A DNA stretch of 64,000 nt from contig JAMPAF010000006.1 in the NCBI GenBank assembly GCA_023667345.1, positions 6,997-70,996 on the forward strand, written 5' to 3'. Below the pieces are notes generated by a model. That model had not been told where the DNA came from. It saw only the letters and a list, made by a program, of their open reading frames with translations, and did not search any database. The DNA comes from Clostridiales bacterium (GTDB taxonomy: Bacteria; Bacillota; Clostridia; Christensenellales; Borkfalkiaceae). The position numbers and the translations under genes were made by a program. Shown here one piece after another: positions 2,636-62,823 of this stretch; position 1 is the first letter of the stretch, and each line of letters begins with the position of its first letter.

Positions 2636-2846
2636 TAATTAATTACGTAGCAAGAAAACCACGTTTTTGCGCAGCGCGCCCCAATTTGCGCATACTTTTT
2701 ACCTTGTCATTCTGAACGAAGTGAAGAATCTAGCGGGCATAGCCCGCGCACGGTAGAAATATTTAGAATATGCGGCTTCGCCTAGATTCTTCGGCAAGCC
2801 TCAGAATGACAGTGAAGGACGCCCCAAGCGGAAGATTTTTGCGAGG
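2636..2846 (+). repeat. split L element (2636-2697 and 2821-2846) with a 105-nt T-type hairpin (2706-2810) between the halves
   Basis: 5' part GTAGCAAGAAAACCACGTTTTTGCGCAGCGCGCCCCAATTTGCGCATAC and 3' part GCCCCAAGCGGAAGATTTTTGCGAGGA match the L ends. The middle is GTCATTCTGAACGAAGTGAAGAATCTAG...CTAGATTCTTCGGCAAGCCTCAGAATGAC with apical GCGGGC-ata-GCCCGC. Confidence 0.8.
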
Positions 2847-3865: not shown

Positions 3866-4140
3866 TGTGGGATTAGCGGTAGGTATTTCATTCTATCCCA
3901 CGCTTGCGCGGCAAGACGTATCGGAAAGCAGTACACTCACCTGTCATTCTGAGCGAAAAGCGGTACGAAAATCTAAGTTGGAATAATAAAGCTTTCCCGC
4001 TTGCAGTCGAAGAATCTTTTTGTGCGCTTTTCTCGCACAAAAAGATTTTCACCCTAATAAAAGGCTTATTGAGGTTAAAGAGTATTAGAAAAGATTTCTC
4101 GACTACGCTCGAAATGACGCCTATGGCGTGGCGAAAAGGC
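3866..4140 (+). repeat. T composite (GTCATTCTGAGCG...CGCTCGAAATGAC) plus extra hairpins
   Basis: 3943-4118 has inverted ends GTCATTCTGAGCG / CGCTCGAAATGAC and an internal 14-bp stem AATCTTTTTGTGCG/CGCACAAAAAGATT. Same family as 29751-29984 and 62355-62643. Confidence 0.8.
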
Positions 4141-4519: not shown

Positions 4520-4716
4520 TTTATCCTTTTTAATATAATAGACGTAGCGGCCAAAAACCGCGCTTTTTGGTCGCGCAACCCAATTTGCGCAAACTTGCGC
4601 CTCCGTAGGGGAATTGCCGCATTTTCAAATAATCAAGGGCTCTTAAATAATGCGACAAGGGGGCAACGCCCCTAAAATTCATTGATTTGTTTTTCATCCT
4701 CCCGAAAAACAAATCA
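4520..4716 (+). repeat. L element copy between nadD-yqeK stop and rsfS start
   Basis: GTAGCGGCCAAAAACCGCGCTTTTTGGTCGCGCAACCCAATTTGCGCAAACTTGCGCC...GGGGCAACGCCCCTAAAATTC, then a perfect 16-bp hairpin 4680-4719 whose right arm covers the nadD-yqeK stop codon. Confidence 0.8.
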
Positions 4717-5841
4717 ATGAGAAGCCTTGATATAATTATATGCCCTCAGCGTTTCTTCGTCTACGGGCTCCCCCGTGCTCTTCAGATAGTCGATTTGGTG
4801 GGACAGAGCCGCAAAAAGGCACTCTTTTAAATCGCTTTTGAAAATTTTCCGCAAAGCGTCGACCCCTTCGAATTTTCTGCCATCTTCCAACATATCGCAA
4901 AGGTATAAAAGCGCGTCGGCATCCGACATATTTTCCTTGCCCGTGGTGTGGCAGGCAATCGCGCTTAAAATTGTTTTGTCGCAAACCCCGAAACGCTTTT
5001 CAGCGACGTACGCGCCCGTATACTGGTGCAGAACGGGCGGTGGCACTTCTTTCGGCGGCGTGAAGCCCTTTAAAAGGGGGCTGTCGGTCGGAAGATATTT
5101 GCCGCAGTCGTGCAGAGCCGCCATGGTCACCGCCTGACTTTCGGTTAAATTTGCCCGCGCCGCATTCTTCGCGCACATTACGGCGACCCGCACGGTATGC
5201 GCGCTCCGCTCGGGCGTGAGCAGTTTTTTATAGCCTTGCAGTTCGGGCAGATAATACAGGGCGTTGTCCCTAATGTATTGCCCTACCGCCGCGTTTACAT
5301 ACCTGTCGAAATCTTCTCCCAGCGCGGCGAGCGTGCGTATCTCGGTGGAACTCACCTTTTCGCCCACGTAGGGAATGGCTGCGACTTCGGTCGAAAACAA
5401 GCTCTCCACCCGCGCCTTGCTCTCCGCAAAGCCCGACTGATTTTCGCGTGCGCACGCAGCAAGCGAAAAGTGCTCCAAAATCTTTTCGGGACTTTTCCAT
5501 TGCGGAAAATTTTCGAGCATGTCCGCGCCGATTATGAACCACCGCTTTGCGTCCTTGTAAAGCCCGGCAAAATGTTCGCACGTCAAATAGGTGTACGAAA
5601 CGCCGCCGCGGGTGAGCTCGAAATTGCTTATTTCCGCCTGCGGCACGCTCGCAAAGGCAAGACGGCACATCTCGTAGCGTTGCCAGAAATCCGCCGCAAG
5701 CTTGCCCGATTTGTGCGGGCTGACCGCCGTGGGCATAATTATTATTTTGTCGAGCTCCAACTCCCTCACCGCCGCGCGCGCCAGATTTACGTGCTCGCGG
5801 TGCACGGGATTGAAAGCCCCTCCTAAAATTCCGATTTTCAT
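4714..5841 (-). CDS. nadD: nicotinate-nucleotide adenylyltransferase NadD fused to HD-domain YqeK
   Basis: N-terminal MKIGILGGAFNPVHREH nucleotidyltransferase motif. The C-terminal half has the HD signature (SAHTVRVA...AALHDCGK). Firmicute synteny nadD-yqeK-rsfS is kept, but as one ORF. Start at ATG 5841 preceded by GAGAGAGGA. Confidence 0.9.
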   Translation of the reverse strand: MKIGILGGAFNPVHREHVNLARAAVRELELDKIIIMPTAVSPHKSGKLAADFWQRYEMCRLAFASVPQAEISNFELTRGGVSYTYLTCEHFAGLYKDAKRWFIIGADMLENFPQWKSPEKILEHFSLAACARENQSGFAESKARVESLFSTEVAAIPYVGEKVSSTEIRTLAALGEDFDRYVNAAVGQYIRDNALYYLPELQGYKKLLTPERSAHTVRVAVMCAKNAARANLTESQAVTMAALHDCGKYLPTDSPLLKGFTPPKEVPPPVLHQYTGAYVAEKRFGVCDKTILSAIACHTTGKENMSDADALLYLCDMLEDGRKFEGVDALRKIFKSDLKECLFAALSHQIDYLKSTGEPVDEETLRAYNYIKASH

Positions 5842-6050
5842 AATATCCTCTCTCGTCGATTTCTTTTTCAAGACGATGAAAAAAGAAATCCGACGATTTT
5901 TGGAGGCTCTGCCTCCCTGCCCGCAATTGCCCGGTGCCCACGTAATTATATAATTGCGGGCATTCCCACCGCTCAGGCGCAGGTATGCGCAAATTGGGGC
6001 GCGCTGCGCAAAAACGCGGTTTTGCTTGCTACGTTTATTATTTTAAAAAT
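5842..6050 (-). repeat. L element copy immediately upstream of nadD-yqeK
   Basis: Shares both L ends with 8558-8757, but the middle is replaced by other hairpins (GGAGGC-tct-GCCTCC; GCCCGCAATT...AATTGCGGGC). Confidence 0.8.
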
Positions 6051-6068: not shown

Positions 6069-6818
6069 ATGAAAAAGATAAATTTCGCTCTTATTTCCGA
6101 CGTTATATTTTTTGCCCTCTGCGCGTTTGTTTTATGCTTTACGGGCGTACGGTTTTATACGCGCAACGCGCTCACCGCGCTGATTGTAGCCGTGGGCACA
6201 GCCGCCGCGTGCGGGCTCATCGCCTTTTACGTGCTTTTAGCCAAGCGCAAAAAGCGGCTTATACTATCCCTTTCCGAAAGCGAGAAAAAGTCGCTCTCGC
6301 TGCACCTTTCGGTATGCGGCGAGGAATACCTTTTGAACCTCTTCGAAAACGCGTTGGACGGCACATATGTGCGGGGTAAACGCTTGCAGGACAACGAAAA
6401 CGTGTACTTTTTCAACTTTAAAATGTCACCCTTGTCTTCCGACGATATAGCGCAGATTATACGCGTGAACAACAAAAAACGCAAGCACATATATTGCTGC
6501 GAAATCTCGCCCGCCGCCCTCTCACTTTCGGAAGATTTTTCGATAGACGTCGTGACCGTAGCTGAAATTTACGCCCTTTTAAAGGACAAAAACCTTCTCC
6601 CCGAAAAGTACGCTTTGGGCAACGTTAAAAAACCGAACGTAATAAAGCGCATCAAAAAACGCTTTAACCGCAAGCTGTGCCCCGCCCTGTTTTTCAGCGG
6701 AATCACGCTCCTTTTTTTCTCGTTCTTCACCTTTTACCCGCTCTACTACGTAATCTTCGGCGGGCTTTTAACCGCCCTTTCCGCAGTCAGCGTACTTATC
6801 AGCCAGCCGAGCCGCTGA
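6069..6818 (+). CDS. hypothetical membrane protein (2 N-terminal and 2 C-terminal TM segments)
   Basis: ORF 5985-6818 trimmed to ATG 6069 (MKKINFALISDV...), because the first 28 codons are repeat L sequence. Hydrophobic segments at both ends. Confidence 0.6.
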   Translation: MKKINFALISDVIFFALCAFVLCFTGVRFYTRNALTALIVAVGTAAACGLIAFYVLLAKRKKRLILSLSESEKKSLSLHLSVCGEEYLLNLFENALDGTYVRGKRLQDNENVYFFNFKMSPLSSDDIAQIIRVNNKKRKHIYCCEISPAALSLSEDFSIDVVTVAEIYALLKDKNLLPEKYALGNVKKPNVIKRIKKRFNRKLCPALFFSGITLLFFSFFTFYPLYYVIFGGLLTALSAVSVLISQPSR

Positions 6819-8557: not shown

Positions 8558-8757
8558 ATTTCTCTCTCGTCGATTTCTTTTGCTTGGGGCGCAAAACAAA
8601 TGCGACGAATTTGAGGGCGTTGCCCTAGCCGCGCGATAAATTTAAGCCCTCTATTATTAGAAATCGCGCGGCTTTACCTACTGAGGCGCAGGTATGCGCA
8701 AATTGGGGCGCGCTGCGCAAAAGCGCGGTTTTGCTTGCTACATTTATTATTTTAAAA
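8558..8757 (-). repeat. L element copy immediately upstream of obg
   Basis: The reverse complement aligns end to end with 23685-23883. Starts right after the obg ATG. Confidence 0.85.
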
Positions 8758-9084
8758 ATTTTAATTCGCAATGCGGAATTACTTATTACGGTCGGAGTAA
8801 TCAAACGCAGACTACGTAATTCTGGATTGCCACGGGCACAAGTGCCCTCGCAATGACGGCGTCCCCAACCCCTTGCCTTCCCCGTTGAAGGGACGAGCAA
8901 CACATTTCTCAAAACAGCACTGTGCGCTGTTTTGGCGTTGCGAGATGAGCAAACGCATATGTCCCGCGTTTGCGGTGACCGAACACGCCGTTTCCCTTGC
9001 GGCGTGTGAGAAAGGTGGCTGCGTAGCAGACGGAAGAGGTTGGTTCTTTTAATTATTCCTCAGCCGCATTCCTAATTCCGAATT
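8758..9084. repeat. hairpin chain: heptamers, T2 module (8807-8859), P-like hairpin, three unique hairpins, P2/P3 modules, H array (9064-9084)
   Basis: T2 = reverse complement of CCGTCATTGCGAGGGCACTTGTGCCCGTGGCAATCCAGAATTACGTAGTCTGC. Stems CAAAACAGC/GCTGTTTTG, GCAAACGC/GCGTTTGC, ACACGCCG/CGGCGTGT. GGCTGC-gta-GCAGAC. CCGCATT CCTAATT CCGAATT overlap the rho stop. Confidence 0.8.
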
Positions 9085-21522: not shown

Positions 21523-21544
21523 ACCTTCCCCTTAGGGGGAAGGT
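21523..21544. repeat. solo P1 hairpin ACCTTCCCC-ttag-GGGGAAGGT
   Basis: Identical to the terminal hairpin of the type I P cores. Confidence 0.7.
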
Positions 21545-21583
21545 TAAATCAAGGAATTAAACAGATAAAAAAACAATTTACAT

Positions 21584-23665: not shown

Positions 23666-23684
23666 CTTTACAACATCAAAATTT

Positions 23685-23883
23685 TATTATAAAATAATAA
23701 ACGTAGCAAGCAAAACCACGCTTTTGCGCAGCGCGACCCAATTTGCGAAAACTTTCGCCTCAGTAGGTAAAGCCGCACGATTTCTAATAATCGAGGGCTA
23801 AAACCTATCGTGCGGCTAGGGCAACGCCCTCAAATTCGCAGAAAATATTTTGCGCCCCAAGCAAAAGATTTTTGCGAGAGAGG
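23685..23883 (+). repeat. L element copy immediately upstream of smpB
   Basis: AAAATAATAAACGTAGCAAGCAAAACCACGCTTTTGCGCAGCGCGACCCAATTTGCG...GCCCCAAGCAAAAGATTTTTGCGAGAGAGG, then 5 nt to the ATG. Confidence 0.85.
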
Positions 23884-23888
23884 TTTTT

Positions 23889-24335
23889 ATGAAGCAGATA
23901 GCGTACAACAAGTCCGCCTCATTCGAATATTTTATCGAGACCAAATTCGAGGCGGGAATAGTTTTGGAGGGCGCGGAAGTCAAGTCTTTGCGGGCGGGCA
24001 ACTGCAACCTGAAAGACAGCTTCTGCTTTATACGGGACGGCGAAGTCACCCTAAAAAATATGCACATACCCGTCTACGACAAGAGTGGCGCGTTCAACTC
24101 AAAGGACAGCAAGCGCGATAGAAAGCTTTTACTGCACAAGTACGAAATAGACAAAATCGTCGGCAAGATAAACCAAAAGGGTATGACGCTCGTGCCCATA
24201 TCCCTCTACTTTAAGGACAACTTAATCAAGGTTGAGGTTGCGCTTTGCCGCGGCAAACAGAACTACGACAAAAAGCAGTCCATAAAAGCGCGCGATATAG
24301 ACCGCGACACAAAAAGACAGATAAAAGATTATTAA
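23889..24335 (+). CDS. smpB: SsrA-binding protein SmpB
   Basis: NKSASFEYFIETKFEAGIVLEGAEVKSLR...RKLLLHKYEI. Start at ATG 23889 preceded by GAGAGAGG. Confidence 0.95.
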   Translation: MKQIAYNKSASFEYFIETKFEAGIVLEGAEVKSLRAGNCNLKDSFCFIRDGEVTLKNMHIPVYDKSGAFNSKDSKRDRKLLLHKYEIDKIVGKINQKGMTLVPISLYFKDNLIKVEVALCRGKQNYDKKQSIKARDIDRDTKRQIKDY

Positions 24336-24625
24336 TTCGGAATTATGAATGCGGAATTCGGAATTAAAATAGACCGCATTATTACCTTCCCCTTAGGGGG
24401 AAGGTGGGTTGACCGATTAGGTCAAGCCGAATGAGGGGTTGGCTATTTAAAACCGACTAACCCCTCATCCGTCCCAACCTTACGGTTGCGACACCTTCCC
24501 CCTAAGGGGAAGGTCAAACAGCGGAATAAATTATTTAAATAATTCAACTCGGTATAATTCCGCCCCGCGCTTGCGCAGCACGGAGCGTAGCGCAGTAATT
24601 ACGAATTCTTCATTAAATAAAGGAG
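24334..24625 (+). repeat. full element: H array (24334-24368), type I P core (24384-24514), linker GCGGAATAAATTATTTA, U module (about 24571-24612)
   Basis: Five-hairpin core bounded by ACCTTCCCC-ttag-GGGGAAGGT and ACCTTCCCC-ctaa-GGGGAAGGT. The first heptamer overlaps the smpB stop. Confidence 0.9.
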
Positions 24626-25913: not shown

Positions 25914-25941
25914 AATTCGGAATGCGGAATGCGGAATTAAG
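25914..25941 (+). repeat. H array, 4 units (AATTCGG AATGCGG AATGCGG AATTAAG)
   Basis: Starts 3 nt after the metY stop and is followed by a terminator hairpin. Confidence 0.8.
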
Positions 25942-26979: not shown

Positions 26980-27178
26980 ATAAATTATTTCTTCAGCTTA
27001 ACCTTCCCCTTAGGGGGAAGGTGGCATTTTCGAAGAATGAGAAAATGTCGAATGAGGGGTTGGTTGGTTTGAACGCACTAACCCCTCATCCGTCGCCGCA
27101 TTAAGTGCGGCGACACCTTCCCCCTAAGGGGAAGGTCACAGTGCGGTTTTCATTCTTAATTCTTAATTCTTAATTTTC
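26980..27178 (+). repeat. type I P core (27001-27136) with flank AAATAAATTATTT and inverted H array (27151-27178)
   Basis: Same five-hairpin plan as 24384-24514 but with different P2 and P4 stems. The array covers the sdaA stop codon. Confidence 0.9.
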
Positions 27179-29750: not shown

Positions 29751-29984
29751 GTCATTCTGTCCCGCCGTAAGGCGGCACGAAGTAGCGGAAAGCGGTTACG
29801 TCATTCTGAGCGGAAAGCGGTACTGAAAAGTAAGTTGAAACAGTAAAGCTTTCCCGCTTGCAGTCGAAGAATCTTTTTGCGCGCCATTTCTCGCGCAAAA
29901 CACTTTTTCCTTTGATACGACGTTATTTAAGGTAAAAAAGTATCGGAAAAGATTTCTCCACTCACTACGTTCGGTCGAAATGAC
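29751..29984 (+). repeat. T composite (two GTCATTCTG modules, long internal stems, CGAAATGAC end)
   Basis: GTCATTCTGTCCCGCCGTAAGGCGGCACGAAGTAGCGGAAAGCGGTTACGTCATTCTGAGCGGAAAGCGG...TTTTGCGCGCCATTTCTCGCGCAAAA...GGTCGAAATGAC. Collinear with 3943-4118 and inverted relative to 62355-62643. Confidence 0.85.
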
Positions 29985-34589: not shown

Positions 34590-35031
34590 GCCGCATGCCG
34601 TGACACGCAGTAGCGGAAAGCGGTACACACCCACCCGTCATTATGAGGTATTTGCGGCATTGCGGACTTGTTTGAAACATTTAAGCATTTAGCCGCAAAA
34701 ACCGTAATAATCTTTTTGCGCGCCTCGAAGAGGTACTCTCGCGCAAAACTAACCTTGCCGCATTACAACGCTATTTAAGACGAACACCCGCAAACTCCGT
34801 AATTCTGGATTGCCACGTCGCTACGCTCCTCGCAATGACGGTAACCAAACACCCGCTATGCTGACGGGTCGAAATGATATGTCTTAATGTGCTCGCAAAA
34901 CAATTAAAAAAGTCGCGGGGCGAATTTTTTCGCCCCGCGACTTTTAAAATTTTTACTTTAATTCCGCCCCTTATGCTTGCAACGACACGGAGCGTAGCGC
35001 CGTAATTCCGAATTCCGAATTCCGAATTCCT
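34590..35031. repeat. mosaic block: T modules, T3 copy (34636-34766), T2 copy (34797-34841), terminator hairpin, U module, H array (35004-35031)
   Basis: T3 aligns with 43795-43924. T2 here has the apical segment GAGGAGCGTAGCGACG. AATTCCG x3 plus AATTCCT end 2 nt before the rplI stop. Confidence 0.85.
34905..34945 (-). terminator. terminator downstream of rplI (also usable on the + strand)
   Basis: 17-bp stem AAAAGTCGCGGGGCGAA/TTCGCCCCGCGACTTTT flanked by A and T runs. Confidence 0.75.
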
Positions 35032-38866: not shown

Positions 38867-39943
38867 TCAACTGTCGAAATTTTCTTTCAATGCGGTTATG
38901 GCGGATTTGTAACCTTTTGCCGCGGATTTTTGCCACAGCTCCTTTGCCTTGTATATATCTTGCCTTACGCCGTCTCCGTTATAATAGCAAACGCCTAAAT
39001 TGTACATTCCCGCGGCGCTGCCTTTTTCCGCGGATTTTGAATACCAGTTTACGGCTTTTGCGTAATCTTGCTTCACGCCCGTCCCGTTAAGATAGCAACT
39101 GCCCAAATTGCTCATAGAGTCGCCGTTGCCCGCTTCGGCGGCTTTCAAGTACCAGTACATAGCTTTCGAATAGTCCTGTGCAACTCCGTTGCCGCTCTCG
39201 TAACATACTCCTAAATTGGCTTGCGCGGAGACGTTGCCTTGCGCCACGGATTTTTCGTACCAACATACCGCCTTTTCGTAATCCGTTTTCGTTCCTAAAC
39301 CGTTATAATAGCAATAGCCCAGTCTGAACTGCGCCTTTGCGTTGCCTTGCTCGGCGGACTTTATAAACAAGCCGAAAGCCCTTTCGTAATCCTGTTTTAC
39401 CCCGACGCCAAAATAATAAAATTCGCCAAGATATAACTGCGCTACGGAAACTCCCTGTTCGGAGGATTTTTCGAACAAGTGAAAAGCTTTTACAACGTCC
39501 TTGCCTGTGCCGAGACCGTTAATATACATTTCGCCGAGATGGCATTGCGCGTATCCGTTTCCCTGCTCGGCGGACTTTGTATACCAATAGAGAGCCTTCT
39601 GAAAATCCTGCTTTACGCCGTAACCTTTAAAGTAACAGTCACCTAAAAGACACTGCGCAAAGTGATGACCCTGCACGGCGGCTTTTTCGTACCAGTACGC
39701 CGCCTTTGCAAAATCTTTATCCACGCCTAAACCGCGGGAATATGCGTCGCCCATATTGCGCTGCGCGCTTGCAAACCCCTGTTCGGCGGATTTTAGCCAC
39801 CAATACACCGCTTTTTTATAATCTTTCGGAATGCCGTCGCCCGTAAAATAACGCGTGCCCAAAAGGCACTGCGCACCGGCGTCGCCCCGTTCGGCGGATA
39901 TTAAAAGTTGTTCTATGCTTGCTTTAAGTTCTTTACCCGCCAT
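38867..39943 (-). CDS. Sel1-like (SLR/TPR) repeat protein
   Basis: About nine 36-aa repeats of the form A..WY.KSAEQGN..AQ..LG.CY..G.GV.QDY.KA. No signal peptide. Confidence 0.85.
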   Translation of the reverse strand: MAGKELKASIEQLLISAERGDAGAQCLLGTRYFTGDGIPKDYKKAVYWWLKSAEQGFASAQRNMGDAYSRGLGVDKDFAKAAYWYEKAAVQGHHFAQCLLGDCYFKGYGVKQDFQKALYWYTKSAEQGNGYAQCHLGEMYINGLGTGKDVVKAFHLFEKSSEQGVSVAQLYLGEFYYFGVGVKQDYERAFGLFIKSAEQGNAKAQFRLGYCYYNGLGTKTDYEKAVCWYEKSVAQGNVSAQANLGVCYESGNGVAQDYSKAMYWYLKAAEAGNGDSMSNLGSCYLNGTGVKQDYAKAVNWYSKSAEKGSAAGMYNLGVCYYNGDGVRQDIYKAKELWQKSAAKGYKSAITALKENFDS

Positions 39944-41657: not shown

Positions 41658-41880
41658 AATTAAGAATTATGAATTAAGAATTAAGAATTATGAATTAAGA
41701 ATTCGGAATTCGGAATTGTATACCCCCCTCAGTCACCGTTGGTGACAGCTCCCCCCTCTATAAAGAAGGGTGAGCCTTGCCTTAGCGCAACCCGTGGCAT
41801 ACCCCTTTTCAAGGGGGAGGCTCCCGCTTTGCGGGTGGTGGGGGTTCAATTCTTAATTCTACATTCTACATTCTGAATCA
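41658..41880 (-). repeat. full element: 9-unit H array (41658-41720), Q core (41718-41848), inverted H array (41848-41880)
   Basis: The Q core is the reverse complement of 58696-58818, with stem-loop differences. Lies between the divergent fhs and glyQS. Confidence 0.9.
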
Positions 41881-43596: not shown

Positions 43597-43636
43597 AATT
43601 CGCCGCGGGATATCCCGCGGCGAATTAATTTTTTTG
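43597..43636 (+). terminator. intrinsic terminator downstream of glyQS
   Basis: AATTCGCCGCGGGA-ta-TCCCGCGGCGAATT plus AATTTTTTT. Confidence 0.8.
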
Positions 43637-43648
43637 CACCTTATTATG

Positions 43649-44106
43649 ACCTTCCCCTTAGGGGGGTCTGTTGCGGTAAAAAAGCATTTAAGAAAAGATT
43701 TCTCGATTTCGCTTACGCTCCACTCGAAATGACGCTTCTCAATCGCTACTGCGTGCCGCTTTGCGGCGGGGGCGAAATGACGCCTACTCTACCCCGTCAT
43801 TATGAGGTTTTTGCGGCATTGCGGACTTGTTTGAAACGTTAAAGTATTTAGCCGTAAAAACCGTAATAATCTTTTTGCGCGCCTCGAAGAGGTATTCTCG
43901 CGCAAAACTAACCTGCCGCATTACTGCGCAATTTAAGGTGTAAATAACACATCCCTCATCCGTCTTGACCTTAACGGTCAAGCCACCTTCCCCCTTTATT
44001 AAGGTGGAAGGCACGATTGCGGTAAAAAATTAGCCGCGCGGCTATTTGCCGCGCGGCTTAACTTTTACTTTCATTCTTAATTCTGAATTCTTAATTCTTA
44101 ATTCAC
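43649..44106. repeat. mosaic block: P1 hairpin, T ends, T3 copy (43795-43924), inverted P3-P2-P1 modules (43950-44012), palindrome GCCGCGCGGC x2, H array (44072-44106)
   Basis: The reverse complement of 43950-44012 matches 47140-47200 except for the P2 stem (CTTGACC-gttaa-GGTCAAG versus CTGC-gta-GCAG). Confidence 0.85.
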
Positions 44107-47112: not shown

Positions 47113-47373
47113 AATGCGGAATGCGGAATGCGTCGTCCCTTGCCTTCCACCTTAATAAAGGGGGAAGGTGGCTGCGTAGCAGACGGATGAGGGATGTGTA
47201 ATATGACTGCATTATAAATAAGGTCAGATTACCGAAACCTCTATCCCCTTGACCTTGACGGTCAAGGTACTTTCCCCTTAAACGCAAGGGGAAAGCAAGT
47301 ATAAGGTGATAATTCCTAATTCCTAATTCCTAATTCCTAATTCTTAATTCTTAATTCTGCATTCTTAATTAAC
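47113..47373 (+). repeat. full type II P element with both H arrays (47113-47133; 47311-47373)
   Basis: AATGCGG AATGCGG AATGCGT ... CCTTCCACC-ttaataaa-GGGGGAAGG, GGCTGC-gta-GCAGAC, GGATGAGGG...CCTCTATCC enclosing GTAATATGAC/GTCAGATTAC, CCTTGACC-ttga-CGGTCAAGG, CTTTCCCC-ttaaacgca-AGGGGAAAG, then nine CNNAATT units. Confidence 0.9.
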
Positions 47374-48306: not shown

Positions 48307-48400
48307 AATTCGGAATTAGGAATGCGGAATTCGGAATTATTCCGCAAACGTGCTTTCCACCTTAATAAAAGGGAATGCAAGAGAAGAGGTTCTATTCCGA
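48307..48400 (+). repeat. H array (5 units, 48307-48341) plus degenerate P1/P3 modules upstream of the metK riboswitch
   Basis: AATTCGG AATTAGG AATGCGG AATTCGG AATTATT; CTTTCCACC-ttaataaaa-GGGAATG; GAAGAGGTT. Confidence 0.7.
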
Positions 48401-48426: not shown

Positions 48427-48556
48427 TTAACCATAGAGAGTGTGCGAGAGAACGGCTCCGCGACCACACAGCAACCTGCTTTGCAAGGTGCTAAGACCGT
48501 ACCGATGGGTAGAAATACGTTTTTTAAACCCCGTTCGGTTGCGAGCGGGGCTTTTA
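48427..48556 (+). promoter_or_regulatory. SAM-I (S-box)-like riboswitch with terminator, metK leader
   Basis: CCATAGAGAGTGTGCGAGAGAACGGCTCCGCGACCACACAGCAACCTGCTTTGCAAGGTGCTAAGACCGTACCGATGGGTAG carries the conserved AGAGAG, AGCAACC and GGTGCTAA blocks with plausible P1-P4 pairings. CCCCG...CGGGG plus CTTTT follows (48529-48555). Some core positions deviate from the consensus I remember. Confidence 0.65.
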
Positions 48557-49834: not shown

Positions 49835-49900
49835 ACATAAATTTGACCATTGCAAGGGTGTAGCGGAACGAGGTACACCACCCGCCGCCGTTGGGGTATG

Positions 49901-50056
49901 CCGTCATTGCGAGGGCACTTGTGCCCGTGGCAATCCAGAATTACGTAGTCCGCGGTGTTCGCTTCCTACTTGTCGCCGTATTACCACGAGGGGATTCTCT
50001 CGGTCAATCGCCCGCTTTCAGCGGGTCTCATATCCCTCGAAATGACACACCTTAAT
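49901..50056 (+). repeat. T2 module (49901-49953) plus T4 module (inverted copy of 62355-62425)
   Basis: CCGTCATTGCGAGGGCACTTGTGCCCGTGGCAATCCAGAATTACGTAGTCCGC; then ...CCACGAGGGGATTCTCTCGGTCAATCGCCCGCTTTCAGCGGGTCTCATATCCCTCGAAATGACAC. Confidence 0.85.
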
Positions 50057-50156: not shown

Positions 50157-52307
<2,151 letters not shown>

Positions 52308-52320
<13 letters not shown>

Positions 52321-54680
52321 ATCGTCAGCGGGGCAATCGAAGCCGACAGCTCCTTTATCCCTTGCCCTTCGAACGCAATGTTTACTACACTGCCGCCGTT
52401 TTTGACGGCGATTACCGTGCCCGTGCCGAACTTGGGGTGGCGCACCTTACAGCCGACGTAAAAATTTTTCGCCGCCGGTTTTTGCTTGGGCGCGGTTGAA
52501 AACGCCGACGCCGCCGAAAAGCTCTTCTGAGGCTTTGCGGGCTGAGAATAACCTGCCTGGGAATAGGAAGGCGAAGGGTCGGGCGCGTAGCCGTCGTCGG
52601 AAGAATAGACGCCCCGTCCGCGGCCGCGCTCGCCGTCCCAGAAGTCGCCCTCGTACCCGCTTCCGTAGGTTGAACGCGAGCCGTAGCCGCCAGAACGCGA
52701 GTAGCCGCTTCCGTAACCCGAGCCGCCGTACCCGCCGCCATATGCGCGCTTGGTATATGACGAAGTTTCGCGCTCGCTGCTTTTTATTTTGTCGCCCATC
52801 TCCTTAATAAACGGCGAGGGCGCGGTGCGCTCCCTGTGCCCGTACAGATAGCGGCTTTTGGAGCGGGTGAGCCACAACTGCTTCTTTGCGCGGGTCACCG
52901 CGACGTACATAAGCCGCCTTTCCTCTTCGAGCGCGGAGGGGTCGTCCTTGGCGCGCGACGTCGGCATAATGCCCTCTTCCAGCCCTACGATAAATACGTT
53001 TTTGAATTCGAGCCCTTTGACCGAGTGAATGGTGGCGAGAGTCACGTAGTTGCCGTCGTCCATTTCGTCGGTGTCGGAAGCGAGCGTGACCTGATTTAAA
53101 TAGTCGTTTAAAGTTGCCGTCGGGTTGAGCCGCGCAAAGTCGTCTACCGCCGCGATAAATTCGTCTATATTGGCAAGTTTGCTGTCCCCGTCGTCCGTGC
53201 CGTCGTCGTAAGCCGACTTTAAGTCGGTGGTAAGAATAATTTCGCGCACCAAACTGCCCACGTCGGACGACTGCGCGGATATGACGAACTGTTTGACCGT
53301 CGAGGCGAAGCCCGCAATCTTTTCCTTTGCAGATTTGGGCAGAGGCAACCCGTCAACGTCGATACACGCGTCGTACAGCGAAAGCCCGCCGCTCTCCTGC
53401 GCGTAGCTTTCCATAACCTCTATCGTCTTTGCGCCTATGCCGCGGCGTGGCACGTTGATAATGCGCGCGAACGCCTCGTTGTCGAACGGGTTGGAAACAA
53501 GGCGCATATAGGCTAAAATATCTTTAATTTCCTTGCGCTCGAAGAACTTGAAGCCGCCGAAAACCTTGTACGGTATGCCGTACTTTGCGAACTCCTGCTC
53601 GTACGAGCGGGTGAGCGCGTTTATGCGCATTAAAACGGCGAAGTCAGAGTAATTGCCCCCCGCATATACCGCGGCGTTTATGGTTTTTGCCGCAAATAAC
53701 GCCTCGTCCTTTTCCTCTTCCGACTGCACGTATTCGGGCTTTATTCCCTCCTCTGCCTCCGTCCAGAGCGTCTTTTTGCGGCGCACTCCGTTGTGGGCTA
53801 TGACCTTGTTCGCAAGGTCTAAAATAGACTTTGTCGAGCGGTAGTTGCGTTGCAGCTTATATACCTTCGCTTGGGGATAGTCCTTATCGAACTTTAAAAT
53901 ATTCTCTATCTCCGCGCCTCGCCAGCCGTATATCGACTGGTCGTCGTCGCCCACAGCGAAAAGGTTACCGTGCTTGCTTGCGAGCAGCCTTATAATGTTG
54001 TACTGCACGGTGTTCGTGTCCTGAAATTCGTCGACGTGAATATATTTAAACTTGTCGGAAAGATAGCCGCGCACCTCGGCGTTGCCGCGAAGAAGCCTTA
54101 GCGTCTGCACGAGTAAATCGTCGAAATCGAGCGCGTTGCACTCGGCTAAATAGGCGTTATACTTTTCGTATACGTCGCACGCGACGCGTATGTTGTCCTC
54201 GTGCTTGTAGCGAACGCCGTACTCGTCGGGGTCCAGCCCGAGCATTTTCGCGTTGCCTATGTGGTACTTAACCGACTTCATTAACTTTTCGTCGTAGCCG
54301 AGCTCCTTGAAAACCTTTTTGATTACGTTTGACCGCTCGGTTTCGCTGTAAATCGAAAAGTTGGGCTGAATTCCGCCCGCATCGCCGTATCTGCGCAATA
54401 TCCGCACGCACATCGAGTGAATGGTGCAAATCCACATATTTCCGATATCGCCGAGGGAATAGGCGACCCTCTCTTTCATTTCGCGCGCCGCCTTGTTAGT
54501 AAAGGTTATCGCGAGGATATTCGAGGGGGAACAGAGCTTTTTTTCGAGTATGTAGGCAATTCGCGAGGTTAAAACGCGCGTTTTGCCGCTGCCTGCGCCC
54601 GCGAGCACGAGCACCGCGCCCTGCGTATCCGTGACGGGCTTTATCTGTTCTTCGTTTAAGTTCTTCAAAATTTCTTCCAT
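52308..54680 (-). CDS. pcrA: ATP-dependent DNA helicase PcrA/UvrD with G/S/Y-rich linker and C-terminal Tudor-like domain
   Basis: AGAGSGKT, DEFQDTN, VTLATIHSVKGLEF, and YVAVTRAKKQL motifs. Conserved pcrA-ligA order. Start at ATG 54680 (MEEILKNLNEEQ). Confidence 0.95.
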
Positions 54681-54689
54681 TACGTATTT

Positions 54690-54718
54690 ATTATACAACA
54701 ATCCACGCCCCAAAGCAA
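54690..54718 (-). promoter_or_regulatory. promoter TTGCTT-17-TATAAT, 9 nt upstream of the pcrA ATG
   Basis: Minus-strand reading. No SD. Confidence 0.45.
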
Positions 54719-54728
54719 GAAAAAGGTT

Positions 54729-54893
54729 GTCAATTCAGAATTAAGAATTAAGAATTTGAGTCAATTCGGAATTAGGAATTTATGTCAATTCGGAATTATG
54801 AATGCGGAATGCGTAATTATGCTAAGGTAAAAATATTTACAACAATCCGACCGTCACTCTTAATTCTACATTCTTAATTCTGCATTAATTCCG
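54729..54893. repeat. block upstream of pcrA: H units, 72-nt IR core (54784-54855), H array (54859-54893)
   Basis: The reverse complement of 54784-54855 differs from 52228-52299 at 3 of 72 positions. The flanking heptamers also correspond. Confidence 0.9.
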
Positions 54894-59860: not shown

Positions 59861-60050
59861 ACCTTCCCCTTAGGGGGAAGGTGGCATTTTCGAGGAACGA
59901 GAAATGTCGGATGAGGGGTTGGCTCTTATAAACCTACTAACCCCTCATCCGTCCCAACCTTACGGTTGCGACACCTTCCCCCTAAGGGGAAGGTTAAATT
60001 GCGGATAAATTATTTAATTTTACCTTAATTCTTAATTCTACCTTAATTAC
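59861..60050 (+). repeat. type I P core (59861-59994), linker GCGGATAAATTATTTA, inverted H units (60024-60050)
   Basis: P2 resembles the 27001 copy, while P3-P5 are as in the 24384 copy. The array covers the metallophosphoesterase stop codon. Confidence 0.9.
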
Positions 60051-60831
60051 TAATTGTAATAACCACTATTTCCGGTCGGTTAAAAAGGCGCAACGGGCAC
60101 TGCGAATTGCCCAGTCCGCGAGAGATTACCTGCCGCATATTTCCGCACGAATGTATTCCCGAACAGTATTTGGGGAACAGTCCCTGCCCCGGTGAATAGA
60201 TGCCTATTTTCGTAAACGGCACCCGCCACTGACCGCCGTGCGCGTGCCCGCATAAAGTTAAATCGTACCCCGCCAAAGAGTACCTTTCGATATACTGCGG
60301 AAGGTGGGTTAAAAGCAGATTGAACCCCTCTTCTGCGCACAGCGAAAAGAAGCCGCCGCACTTTATTTTGGCGCAGTTTACGCCCGCAATATTTATGCCG
60401 AACGCCTCTATGCACTCGCCCTCAGGCACGGTTGCGCCCGCCTCTTTTATCCGCTCTTTAAGTGTGCGGTACTCCGTGCTCCGCATTTCGTGGTTGCCGC
60501 TTACGTAGTACACGGGCGCGATTTTGCAAAGCTCCTTTATAATCGCCAGCGCGACGGCGATATCGCGCGCGCGGTACTTATGGATAATATCGCCGGTGAT
60601 TGCGATAAAGTCGGGGCTCTCCCTTTCTATCTTTTTCAAAAGCCGCTTATTCCCCTTGCCGAACGACTTGCCGTGCAAATCGGAAAGGTGGACTATCTTA
60701 ACCCCCTTTTCGGGCGCTTTTTCGCTTTCGACTTTATACCGCGTAATTGTTATTAAGTTGTTGGAGTACAGGCAAAACAGCGCTATAAGCACAACGCCCG
60801 CAACACACCCCAAAGTTATATACAGCCACAT
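60043..60831 (-). CDS. membrane-anchored metallophosphoesterase (YkuE-like)
   Basis: N-terminal TM. HLSDLHG, GDIIH, GNHE, and GHAHGG calcineurin-like motifs. ATG abuts the trmB stop (TGAATG). Confidence 0.85.
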   Translation of the reverse strand: MWLYITLGCVAGVVLIALFCLYSNNLITITRYKVESEKAPEKGVKIVHLSDLHGKSFGKGNKRLLKKIERESPDFIAITGDIIHKYRARDIAVALAIIKELCKIAPVYYVSGNHEMRSTEYRTLKERIKEAGATVPEGECIEAFGINIAGVNCAKIKCGGFFSLCAEEGFNLLLTHLPQYIERYSLAGYDLTLCGHAHGGQWRVPFTKIGIYSPGQGLFPKYCSGIHSCGNMRQVISRGLGNSQCPLRLFNRPEIVVITISN

Positions 60832-62354: not shown

Positions 62355-62823
62355 TGTCATTTCGAGCGATTGAGAATCCCGCGTAGCGGGTTCGATTGAG
62401 TCGAGAGAATCCCCTCGTGGTAATACGTGAAAAATTGGGAAGTGATATCACCTTAAATAACATTGTAATGTGGCAAGATTAGTTTTGCGCGAGAAAGGGC
62501 GCGCAAAAAGATTCTTCGACTGCAAGCGGGAAAACTTTATTATTTCATCTTACTTTATCATACCGCTTTTCGCTCAGAATGACAGTTGGCGGTGATACCG
62601 CTTTTTCGCTACTCCGTGCCGCCTGCGGCGGGGCAGAATGACGGATTGAGAATTGCTTTCGCTACTGCGGACAAAGGCATACCCCTTTTCATTCTTTACG
62701 AAAGTAAGTTTAAGATAATAAGAAGATTTGGGTGCAGCGACACGCTGCCTCCCGCGTAACGGGTGGTGGGGGTTTCATTCTGAATTCTGAATTCTAAATT
62801 CTGAATTCTTAATTCTTAATTCT
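62355..62823 (-). repeat. T4 plus inverted T composite (62355-62643), Q fragment (62677-62775), 7-unit H array (62775-62823)
   Basis: GTGTCATTTCGAGCGATTGAGAATCCCGCGTAGCGGGTTCGATTGAG...; CGCTCAGAATGAC...GGGGCAGAATGACGG; GGGTGGTGGGGGTT. The array ends 2-4 nt before the gerXC stop. Confidence 0.85.

Follow-up and report, generated by a model that had tools for sequence, protein, structure and literature searches.

Five copies of a repeat of approximately 195 nt, four of them complete and one split, reside in the window, which is the whole 64,000-nucleotide stretch of contig JAMPAF010000006.1 (Clostridiales bacterium) that was analysed. We consider it likely that these copies belong to a family of small, highly structured, non-coding repeats that is restricted to one lineage, and whose interspersed members are gained and lost at gene junctions and are tolerated there as near-neutral adapters. 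The hosts of this family are Christensenellales gut bacteria, represented by Borkfalkia- and Coproplasma-like metagenome-assembled genomes (MAGs). The copies share a fold of five to six helices that carry compensatory changes, they are dispersed and also form tandem arrays, they are present at some junctions and absent from the orthologous ones, and their 3ʹ ends lie flush with a start codon or with the stop codon of a convergent gene. An earlier analysis of the window, hereafter the original prediction, had offered two readings of the repeat, namely a mobile element with an outward-facing ribosome binding site and an AT-rich, promoter-like other end, or a shared structured leader that co-regulates ribosome-associated genes.

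Copies of the repeat in the window

The core motif GCGCNNCCCAATTTGCG occurs five times in the window, compared with 0.6 occurrences expected from shuffled sequences. A covariance model of the 5ʹ domain (R1) run on the 64 kb matched exactly the five copies, and a second model covering helices P4 to P6 (R2) matched the four complete ones. All five locations named by the original prediction were borne out by direct reading, by alignment and by the R1 model. When the copies are aligned with MAFFT, a 5ʹ block and a 3ʹ block are common and the middle is more variable; the obg and smpB copies, whose middle parts had been estimated to align at about 85%, are 87% identical across 196 nt. Pfam searches on the neighbouring genes confirmed the names obg, nadD-yqeK (a NadD-HD fusion) and rsfS, whereas the identity of SmpB is supported via homologues with PF01668. 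The copies and their parts are as follows.

23690-23883 (+): complete smpB copy, between the rnr stop codon (23665) and the smpB ATG (23889)
23690-23702 (+): AT-rich end of the smpB copy
23706-23732, 23746-23757, 23772-23816, 23818-23830, 23838-23875 (+): helices P1, P2, P4, P5 and P6 of the smpB copy
23736-23744 (+): invariant ACCCAATTT of the smpB copy
23876-23883 (+): tail GAGAGAGG of the smpB copy
8561-8754 (-): complete obg copy, upstream of the obg ATG (8557-8555)
8712-8738, 8687-8698, 8628-8672, 8614-8626, 8569-8606 (-): helices P1, P2, P4, P5 and P6 of the obg copy
8742-8754 (-): AT-rich end of the obg copy
8561-8568 (-): tail GAGAGAGA of the obg copy
5847-6045 (-): complete nadD-yqeK copy, upstream of the ATG (5841-5839)
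5917-5962, 5903-5915, 5855-5894 (-): alternative P4, alternative P5 and P6 of the nadD-yqeK copy
5847-5854 (-): tail GAGAGAGG of the nadD-yqeK copy
4531-4724 (+): complete nadD-yqeK/rsfS copy, antisense to both neighbours
2642-2846 (+): split copy
2821-2846 (+): 3ʹ remnant of the split copy, comprising the 3ʹ half of P6 and the tail GCCCCAAGCGGAAGATTTTTGCGAGG

The nadD-yqeK copy occupies the divergent gap as far as an open reading frame (ORF) that starts at 6069 (+). At the other end of the same gene, the nadD-yqeK stop codon (TGA, 4714-4716) lies within the 3ʹ arm of P6 of the antisense copy, such that the last codons of NadD-YqeK (..ASH*) are encoded by the repeat, and the rsfS ATG (4515-4513) is approximately 15 nt from the 5ʹ end of this copy. 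The split copy lies where it had been placed, and we can add that its middle has been replaced by an element (~2700-2815, GTCATTCTGA...TCAGAATGAC) from a different family of inverted repeats. Its 5ʹ domain gives an R1 match at 2642-2717 (56 bits), in which repeat sequence extends only to ~2697 and the remainder overlaps the insert, and its 3ʹ remnant abuts the stop codon (2848-2850) of a convergent ORF.

Distribution of the family beyond the window

A 19-base string from the 5ʹ block was used as a search pattern over species-representative genomes, and yielded 102 stretches, three of which are chance matches in unrelated phyla. The remaining 99 exact-motif stretches reside in 40 species-level MAGs labelled Clostridia, Christensenella, Christensenellaceae, Borkfalkia or Borkfalkiaceae, which derive from rabbit, mouse, chicken and other guts. 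Loci of 8-20 kb (approximately 697 kb in total; L-numbers below) were fetched, and divergent copies are under-sampled among them because the loci were chosen via the exact motif. The R1 model gave 123 matches in these 697 kb and the R2 model gave 75, nearly all of which adjoin a 5ʹ domain. Since the model of the 3ʹ part finds essentially full-length copies only, 5ʹ truncation of the kind seen for retro-elements was rejected. Some copies form head-to-tail arrays (e.g. L019, with a period of ~196 nt), and the AT-rich segment is part of the repeating unit in such arrays. At least two deeper subfamilies have only the 5ʹ domain in common with the main family.

Non-orthologous copies from two species sometimes match each other better than do two copies from the same genome. 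For example, the smpB copy is 93% identical to a copy upstream of purA in L080 and 87% identical to the obg copy of the window, and the nearest neighbour resides in the same genome for only 10 of 44 copies. For comparison, identity to the window in coding DNA is mostly 70-85% for L103, L107 and L108, the closest relatives found. Scans of the copies against Rfam 15 at E<=10 returned chance-level matches only, and at the gathering threshold no match to the repeat copies was obtained in the window. The repeat was not found in IMG/VR, GenBank phages or PLSDB plasmids, so no vector is evident. The R1 and R2 models could serve to mark strains or lineages of Borkfalkia- and Coproplasma-like bacteria.

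A multi-helix fold with extensive covariation

RNAalifold applied to 58 full-length copies predicts P1 with an outer extension, P2, a weak P3, a long P4, a short GC-rich P5 and a long imperfect P6. Compensatory double changes occur in 30 of the 39 predicted pairs. With the structure held fixed, controls were made by shuffling alignment columns (n=500) and by sliding the 3ʹ partners. Standard pairs form in 94.1% of cells, versus 75.1% in the shuffles and 39-51% in the slid controls, and there are 443 double-change cells compared with 144 in column shuffles. The covariation score is 0.50, against 0.16 for shuffles (none of the 500 as high) and 0.08-0.13 for slid partners. The paired differences that had been noticed among the window copies are therefore real, and these covariation counts extend them to the whole family.

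An invariant unpaired segment, ACCCAAUUUGC, lies between P1 and P2, and is kept in a divergent L110 copy whose P1 shows the covaried arms CUACCGAAAA/UUUUCGGUAG. The hairpins come in distinct versions, or modules, that are recombined among copies and shared across species. The middle of the nadD copy had been described as unrelated hairpins, but it is instead an alternative P4/P5 module that recurs in other species (L098, L085, L014 and L092), and the L098 copy is 88% identical overall to the nadD copy. A GTAG sequence is present only in some subfamilies, with GGCG or TGCG in its place in others. Pairing of CCCAAUUUG with the P5-P6 linker as a pseudoknot was rejected because the linker varies without covariation, and a pseudoknot between the P4 loop and P5 was rejected because P5 variants change without matching changes in the P4 loop. 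A sigma-54-like reading of the invariant motif was considered by eye and dropped.

Copies at the same insertion site in three species (L037, L042 and L095) differ at 1-3 of 78 paired columns and at 5-17 of 98-99 unpaired columns (1 of 78 and 17 of 98, respectively, for L037 versus L042). Because paired columns diverge less than unpaired columns in these same-site copies, ongoing selection on the stems after insertion is suggested.

Filled and empty orthologous sites

Relatives carry no repeat at the obg, nadD, yqeK-rsfS and smpB junctions, where their gaps are 0-49 nt compared with approximately 200-525 nt in the window. These and other filled and empty sites are listed below.

rnr-smpB: window gap 223 nt; 49 nt in L103, 32 nt in L107 and 37 nt in L108 (SmpB identity 96%, 91% and 88%)
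obg: window gap ~525 nt with the repeat and other repeat families; overlaps the upstream gene in L110
nadD: window divergent gap filled by the repeat; ~40 nt in L110, L111 and L113, with no obvious Shine-Dalgarno (SD) sequence
yqeK-rsfS: repeat in the window; genes overlap (ATGA-type junction) in L110 and L113
dnaG: filled in L086, with a 214-nt spacer; 21 nt in L010 (DnaG identity 97.8%)
GlnRS: filled in L060; empty in the window
obg-yhbY spacer: filled in L110, antisense; no copy detected in the window

In L113, L053 and L038, obg has its own signals without the repeat. The C-terminus of NadD-YqeK reads ..IKASH* in the window, where the repeat encodes it, versus ..IKEKFYE* in relatives. The same contrast, with a copy in one species and none in another, is seen at further sites, among them those upstream of glgB, prfB, uxaC, rpsP and the ORF that follows the L032 copy. 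Conservation of position upstream of orthologues was not observed, in that relatives without the repeat were found for obg, smpB, nadD, dnaG, prfB, glgB and rpsP. Because the orthologous junctions lack the repeat and the two closely similar dnaG loci differ, we regard it as an interspersed repeat rather than a conserved leader. The 21-nt dnaG spacer of L010, AATAAAGCGCAAGAAAAACTT (reverse strand, ~28-50 nt past oriented position 1156), looks like the initial ~22 nt of the repeat, and it was probably left behind by a deletion, as opposed to being a site that never received a copy.

Empty rnr-smpB sites carry a predicted promoter, TTTACA-17-TATAAT. The window retains the same -35 box (TTTACA at 23667), and the TAAAAT within the AT-rich end of the smpB copy follows with 17-nt spacing as its predicted -10 partner. 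The TAAAAT-like 5ʹ end of the repeat aligns with a host -10 box in two filled/empty pairs. The smpB ATG is located ~0-8 nt past the -10 box in L107 and L108, and 17 nt past it, with AGG, in L103. A TATAAT/TAAAAT-like box ~0-8 nt before the ATG, without a clear SD, is also found for obg in L053, for nadD in L110, L111 and L113, and for an L022 ORF that is orthologous to the one following the L032 copy. Sites in relatives at which a box lies near the ATG include the following.

L103, 9951-10001
L107, 9968-10001
L108, 9963-10001
L053, 880-940
L110, 6960-7003

Judged from these predicted signals, leaderless or near-leaderless mRNAs may be common in the clade, as the spacings suggest.

Position at gene boundaries and the Shine-Dalgarno tail

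The genomic context of the 58 full copies was counted using crude ORF-based gene calls. A co-oriented ATG lies 9-25 nt past the last P6 pair in 26 copies, and the stop codon of a convergent gene lies within -5 to +9 nt of the P6 end in at least 13. A few copies reside 44-85 nt before a co-oriented gene that possesses its own SD, and some are succeeded by another copy. The 3ʹ end is flush with a coding boundary in either orientation, whereas the distance between the 5ʹ end and its neighbour ranges from -2 to several hundred nt. The bias in orientation with respect to the downstream gene is mild (~60:40).

The tail past P6 starts with GA in 25 of the 26 start-adjacent copies and in 27 of the 32 others. 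An SD core (GGAG, GAGG, AGGA, AAGG or GGGA) within 12 nt is present in 21 of the former versus one of the latter. Start-adjacent copies have a uniform GAGARAGG tail, the invariant end of the repeat is ...GA(GA), and the longest tails common to copies without a start codon are GAGAAAG. Within one subfamily, the tail GAGAAAG is followed by divergence, to ACAC in L096, to CTTAG after GAGAAG in L024, and to CCTTG after GAGAAG in the rsfS copy of the window. Because shared tails diverge before the GG in copies without a start codon, the SD is only partly repeat-derived. As read from these sequences, the repeat gives the 5ʹ purines of the predicted SD, and the GG core is exactly at the boundary between repeat and flank, where it is either host-derived or kept only where it is used. 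The original prediction had assigned the SD of obg, nadD-yqeK and smpB to the repeat as a whole, and this is correct for the 5ʹ purines, with the GG core lying at the boundary. The tail does adjoin the start codon in these three cases, at distances of 5 nt (smpB), 5 nt (nadD) and 3-4 nt (obg) rather than the 5-7 nt proposed.

Folding had been put forward as a check for sequestration of the SD in the terminal stem, and we obtained no consistent sign of it. The mean unpaired probability of the SD is 0.55, versus 0.12 for the adjacent P6 arm, and the SD is mostly accessible in predicted folds.

The genes located downstream of copies are functionally diverse. Among their products are SmpB, Obg, NadD, S16, L34, RF2, NFACT/RqcH, an S4-domain protein, DnaJ and HslV, as well as SMC, DnaG, RuvX, PurA, an amylase, an M29 peptidase, V-ATPase subunit F, and GlgB-like and UxaC-like proteins. 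L34, DnaJ and a few others are names that we presume from sequence only.

Asymmetry between the two strands

When the helices of the 58 copies were folded on both strands, the sense strand gave the more stable P3 in 48 copies and the more stable P6 in 45, whereas the antisense strand gave the more stable 5ʹ domain in 51. The source of this antisense stability is an alternative hairpin, P1ʹ (sense CCRCGY-UUUU-GCGCNG), whose C-A and A-C mismatches on the sense strand become G-U pairs on the antisense strand. P1ʹ pairs more on the antisense strand in 62 of 92 copies, versus five of 92 on the sense strand. The antisense hairpin is followed by UUUUGCUUGCUACGUUUAUUAUUUU, a U-run, and a simple terminator scan flagged it in four of the five window copies. 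The corresponding sites are given below.

23715-23732 (-): antisense P1ʹ in the smpB copy, CUGCGC-AAAA-GCGUGG followed by UUUUGCUUGCUACGUUUAUUAUUUU
8712-8729 (+): equivalent P1ʹ site
6003-6020 (+): equivalent P1ʹ site
2658-2675 (-): equivalent P1ʹ site

The antisense 5ʹ domain thus has the predicted make-up of an intrinsic terminator, with a GC-rich hairpin directly followed by a U-run. The same scan found no sense-strand hairpin with a subsequent U-run; P6 is followed by GAGA instead.

Interspersed repeats as proposed near-neutral adapters

We infer that the repeat persists as a near-neutral adapter that is, in effect, 'pre-adapted' to either orientation. In the sense orientation, a copy would start with a -10-like TAAAAT, would contain no terminator, and would end in the purine tail GAGARAG, which could merge with GG to create an SD whose predicted use is 5-9 nt before the ATG. 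An insertion between a promoter and a near-leaderless, short-leader or translationally coupled start would then be survivable, as the gene would still be translated; obg, nadD-yqeK and smpB may represent this case in the window. In the antisense orientation, a copy would be placed after a stop codon, or could supply the stop codon itself as for nadD-yqeK, and would form a structured 3ʹ untranslated region (UTR) that ends in a hairpin and U-run resembling a putative intrinsic terminator. By analogy with Correia and REP elements (PMC2229807, PMC3049150), we speculate that the long imperfect P6 beside the SD could be cleaved by RNase III or could stabilise the 5ʹ end.

This arrangement would mean that the start signals of the essential genes obg, nadD and smpB are built partly from a selfish-looking repeat, at positions where neighbouring species use short or absent leaders. 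The family could offer a natural experiment on the remodelling of gene starts and ends by repeats. It also poses a risk for annotation, since copies can prompt spurious upstream TTG/GTG extensions of ORFs, mimic a covarying 'riboswitch' and break MAG assemblies.

Several observations weigh against this interpretation. No transposase or recombinase recurs beside the copies when the 589 ORFs of the loci are clustered all against all, and the consensus as read contains no terminal inverted repeats. There is no signal of target-site duplication of 3 nt or more. Shared 3-5-mers are not enriched at fixed offsets, and the value for the longest direct repeat of each copy is 5.52 versus 5.53 for the permuted control, in a test that is blind to a 2-bp duplication. 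Mobility would thus be deduced from presence and absence only, and the context counts come from a crude gene caller. Matches to a -35 box are no better at start-adjacent copies than at others, so the -10-like end is not generally a complete promoter. Furthermore, the strong conservation of ACCCAAUUUGC, which is unpaired, and the purifying selection that stems undergo after insertion suggest that the repeat has a function and is not simply neutral.

Most of the mobile-element reading of the original prediction nonetheless finds support. Copies occur at unrelated loci across 40 species and are absent from orthologous sites, 26 of 58 precede a co-oriented ATG with a uniform tail, and alignment of TAAAAT with host -10 boxes in two filled/empty pairs agrees with the promoter-like end that had been proposed. 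That reading has to be amended in that the SD is only partly repeat, the orientation bias is mild and a mechanism of transposition was not identified. A single-strand mechanism of the IS200/IS605 or RAYT-like type would be compatible with the data, as would site-specific recombination at TAAAAT-like boxes.

A more specific proposal derives the repeat from a single-strand DNA transposon, as a non-autonomous form (an IS200/IS605-type PATE or a REP/RAYT-like element) mobilised in trans by a Y1/HUH transposase that recognises subterminal hairpins and inserts beside a short AT-rich target such as TAAAAT. Such an element would have neither terminal inverted repeats nor target duplications, it would be asymmetric, as is the repeat, whose P1 and P6 hairpins lie ~16-20 nt from the 5ʹ end and ~6-8 nt from the 3ʹ end, respectively, and its stems would covary if structure rather than sequence were recognised. 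The coincidence of the 5ʹ junction with host TAAAAT/TATAAT in two filled/empty pairs also points this way. We nevertheless judge this proposal unlikely, given that no TnpA, TnpB or RAYT-like gene recurs near the copies among the 589 ORFs of the loci and that the AT-rich segment lies within the array unit and hence is not simply target DNA. The G-U asymmetries also differ between helices, which fits RNA-level selection on both strands better than it fits an enzyme reading one DNA strand. Even harder to credit are independent small RNA genes with their own -10-like promoter, for which proximity to start codons would be incidental. The constant spacing between the TAAAAT-like box and the structured part, the stable conserved fold, and the full promoter of some copies (TTTACA-17-TAAAAT at smpB, and also in L032 and L086) would suit such genes. 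However, most copies have no -35 box, transcripts lacking a sense terminator would run into the next gene, and the 3ʹ ends are flush with coding boundaries, which together render this explanation scarcely credible.

The second original reading was a shared cis-regulatory leader, riboswitch-like or protein-binding, through which one signal would reach many housekeeping and ribosome-associated genes via the invariant 5ʹ domain. The multi-helix fold with strong covariation, the invariant single-stranded ACCCAAUUUGC, the 26 of 58 copies exactly in a 5ʹ-UTR position and the conservation of stems among same-context copies all resemble such an RNA, and SmpB, Obg, S16, L34, RF2, NFACT/RqcH and the S4-domain protein are translation-related. 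Yet the repeat is missing from the orthologous leaders of relatives, including those of obg, smpB and nadD, and around a third of copies (at least 13 of the 58 counted) are antisense behind stop codons, with some in tandem arrays. The downstream genes are also diverse in function, ranging from RF2 and S16 to HslV, SMC, DnaG, PurA, GlgB, an amylase and a UxaC-like protein. No consistent SD sequestration or alternative pairing, no sense-strand terminator and no Rfam match were found, and we consider this reading quite improbable. Little credence likewise attaches to the idea that the repeat is a portable, self-contained leader cassette under selection, in which a -10 box and an SD would be combined with a structured RNA whose invariant loop serves for recognition. 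If true, spread of the cassette would have converted leaderless or coupled housekeeping genes to leadered, SD-dependent ones, and would have placed dozens of them under a single trans-acting factor recognising the ACCCAAUUUGC/P1-P2 domain. It would then be a mobile cis-regulatory RNA that builds a regulon by transposition.

Other repeats and features of the window

The window genome has strongly expanded, repeat-filled intergenic regions compared with relatives, as is evident from the obg gap, which is filled with repeats where the same two genes overlap in L110. The part of this gap upstream of the obg copy (8757-9083) contains further repeated DNA, including a 61-nt segment at 8806-8866 that matches 49894-49954 at 95%. 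Tandem arrays of 7-nt units (AATTMRG/GAATTAA-type, 2-7 units, on either strand) occur in at least 13 intergenic regions, and recall the intergenic TAACTGA arrays of Beggiatoaceae (PMC4679880). A second repeat family consists of a perfect hairpin, ACCTTCCCCTTAGGGGGAAGGT, with an extended version of ~100 nt, and is often found beside heptamer arrays, for example in the 300-nt smpB-metY gap (40 nt in L103). The third family has inverted ends of the GTCATTCTGAGCG...CGAAGAATC type, and one of its members is the insert that replaced the middle of the split copy.

1056-1103, 24328-24365, 25914-25937, 27152-27175, 35004-35030, 41658-41717, 44073-44104, 47113-47132: heptamer arrays
47310-47370, 48307-48338, 52197-52228, 54732-54803, 54858-54886, 60014-60055, 62777-62823: heptamer arrays, continued
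21523-21566, 24384-24525, 27001-27146, 43633-43665, 59861-60016: second repeat family
3938-4027, 29800-29933, 62450-62588, and nested at ~2700-2815: third repeat family
48428-48511 (+): SAM riboswitch (RF00162, 47 bits), the sole Rfam family above its gathering score in the window
52192-52320 and 54763-54891: inverted arms of 129 nt, 93% complementary, partly heptamer repeats
52308-54713 (-): ORF of 801 amino acids flanked by these arms
39101-39903: 47-nt segment in six copies, spaced at 108 nt or multiples thereof

The 47-nt segments at 39101-39903 probably encode a repeated protein motif.

Comparison with known repeat systems

As interspersed repeats, the copies described here are multi-copy, non-coding, and present or absent at orthologous sites, and they lack the defining features of miniature inverted-repeat transposable elements (MITEs), of REP sequences and of riboswitches. 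Among described repeats, the bcr1 element of the Bacillus cereus group comes closest. In summary, bcr1 is an intergenic, non-coding, transcribed Firmicute repeat of ~155 bp whose distribution is not conserved between strains, and which forms a two-stem cruciform with compensatory changes, is flanked by 5-bp direct repeats and has no transposase of its own (PMC3184786). On that description, both repeats belong to an intergenic class of 150-200 nt with non-conserved distribution, covarying structure and no transposase of their own. The present family differs from bcr1 in having no detectable target duplication or 5-bp direct repeats, in its five to six helices and invariant single-stranded motif, in its occurrence in 40 species-level genomes, and in a 3ʹ end that merges into the predicted SD.

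BOX, SPRITE, Correia and ERIC elements are each partly alike. BOX elements of Streptococcus pneumoniae have terminal inverted repeats that pair together and a proposed partner, ISSpn2; they are enriched downstream of genes and are co-transcribed with neighbouring genes (PMC3049150). The family resembles BOX in its conserved 5ʹ module and exchangeable hairpin modules, its folded transcripts (predicted here), its intergenic location and its lack of a clear link to the functional class of neighbouring genes. Unlike BOX, we found no terminal inverted repeats or insertion sequence partner, and 45% of copies are directly upstream of start codons. SPRITE, the pneumococcal Rho-independent-terminator-like element, is essentially one hairpin of ~105 nt (PMC3049150). 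Likeness to SPRITE lies in the hairpin and U-rich tract on one strand and in the proximity to convergent 3ʹ ends, suggesting co-option as a terminator, whereas the terminator-like hairpin is here one end of a larger element whose other strand may serve as a leader.

Correia/NEMIS elements of Neisseria and ERIC elements of enterobacteria alter the expression of adjacent genes in that they create promoters, are co-transcribed and form long RNA hairpins open to cleavage by RNases, with orientation-dependent effects (PMC2229807, PMC3049150). Both are true MITEs with terminal inverted repeats, with a TA duplication in addition for Correia (PMC2229807, PMC3049150). They are not reported to supply an SD, they occur in other taxa, and they exhibit no sequence or Rfam similarity to the repeat. 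REP sequences are single palindromes of 20-40 nt with a GTAG or CGTC tag that are tied to a RAYT gene (PMC3116915, PMC3733652). As with REP/BIME and REPIN, the family consists of high-copy extragenic structured repeats that reside after stop codons and in arrays; unlike REP, its members are five times longer, asymmetric and multi-helix, with no recurrent neighbour gene within the loci. IS200/IS605-derived PATEs combine subterminal hairpins with an absence of inverted repeats and duplications, a combination that is also seen here and is compatible with such an origin without being specific to it. The traits that set the family apart are its breadth across 40 species, its very strong covariation, its dual-strand design and its SD-forming 3ʹ end.

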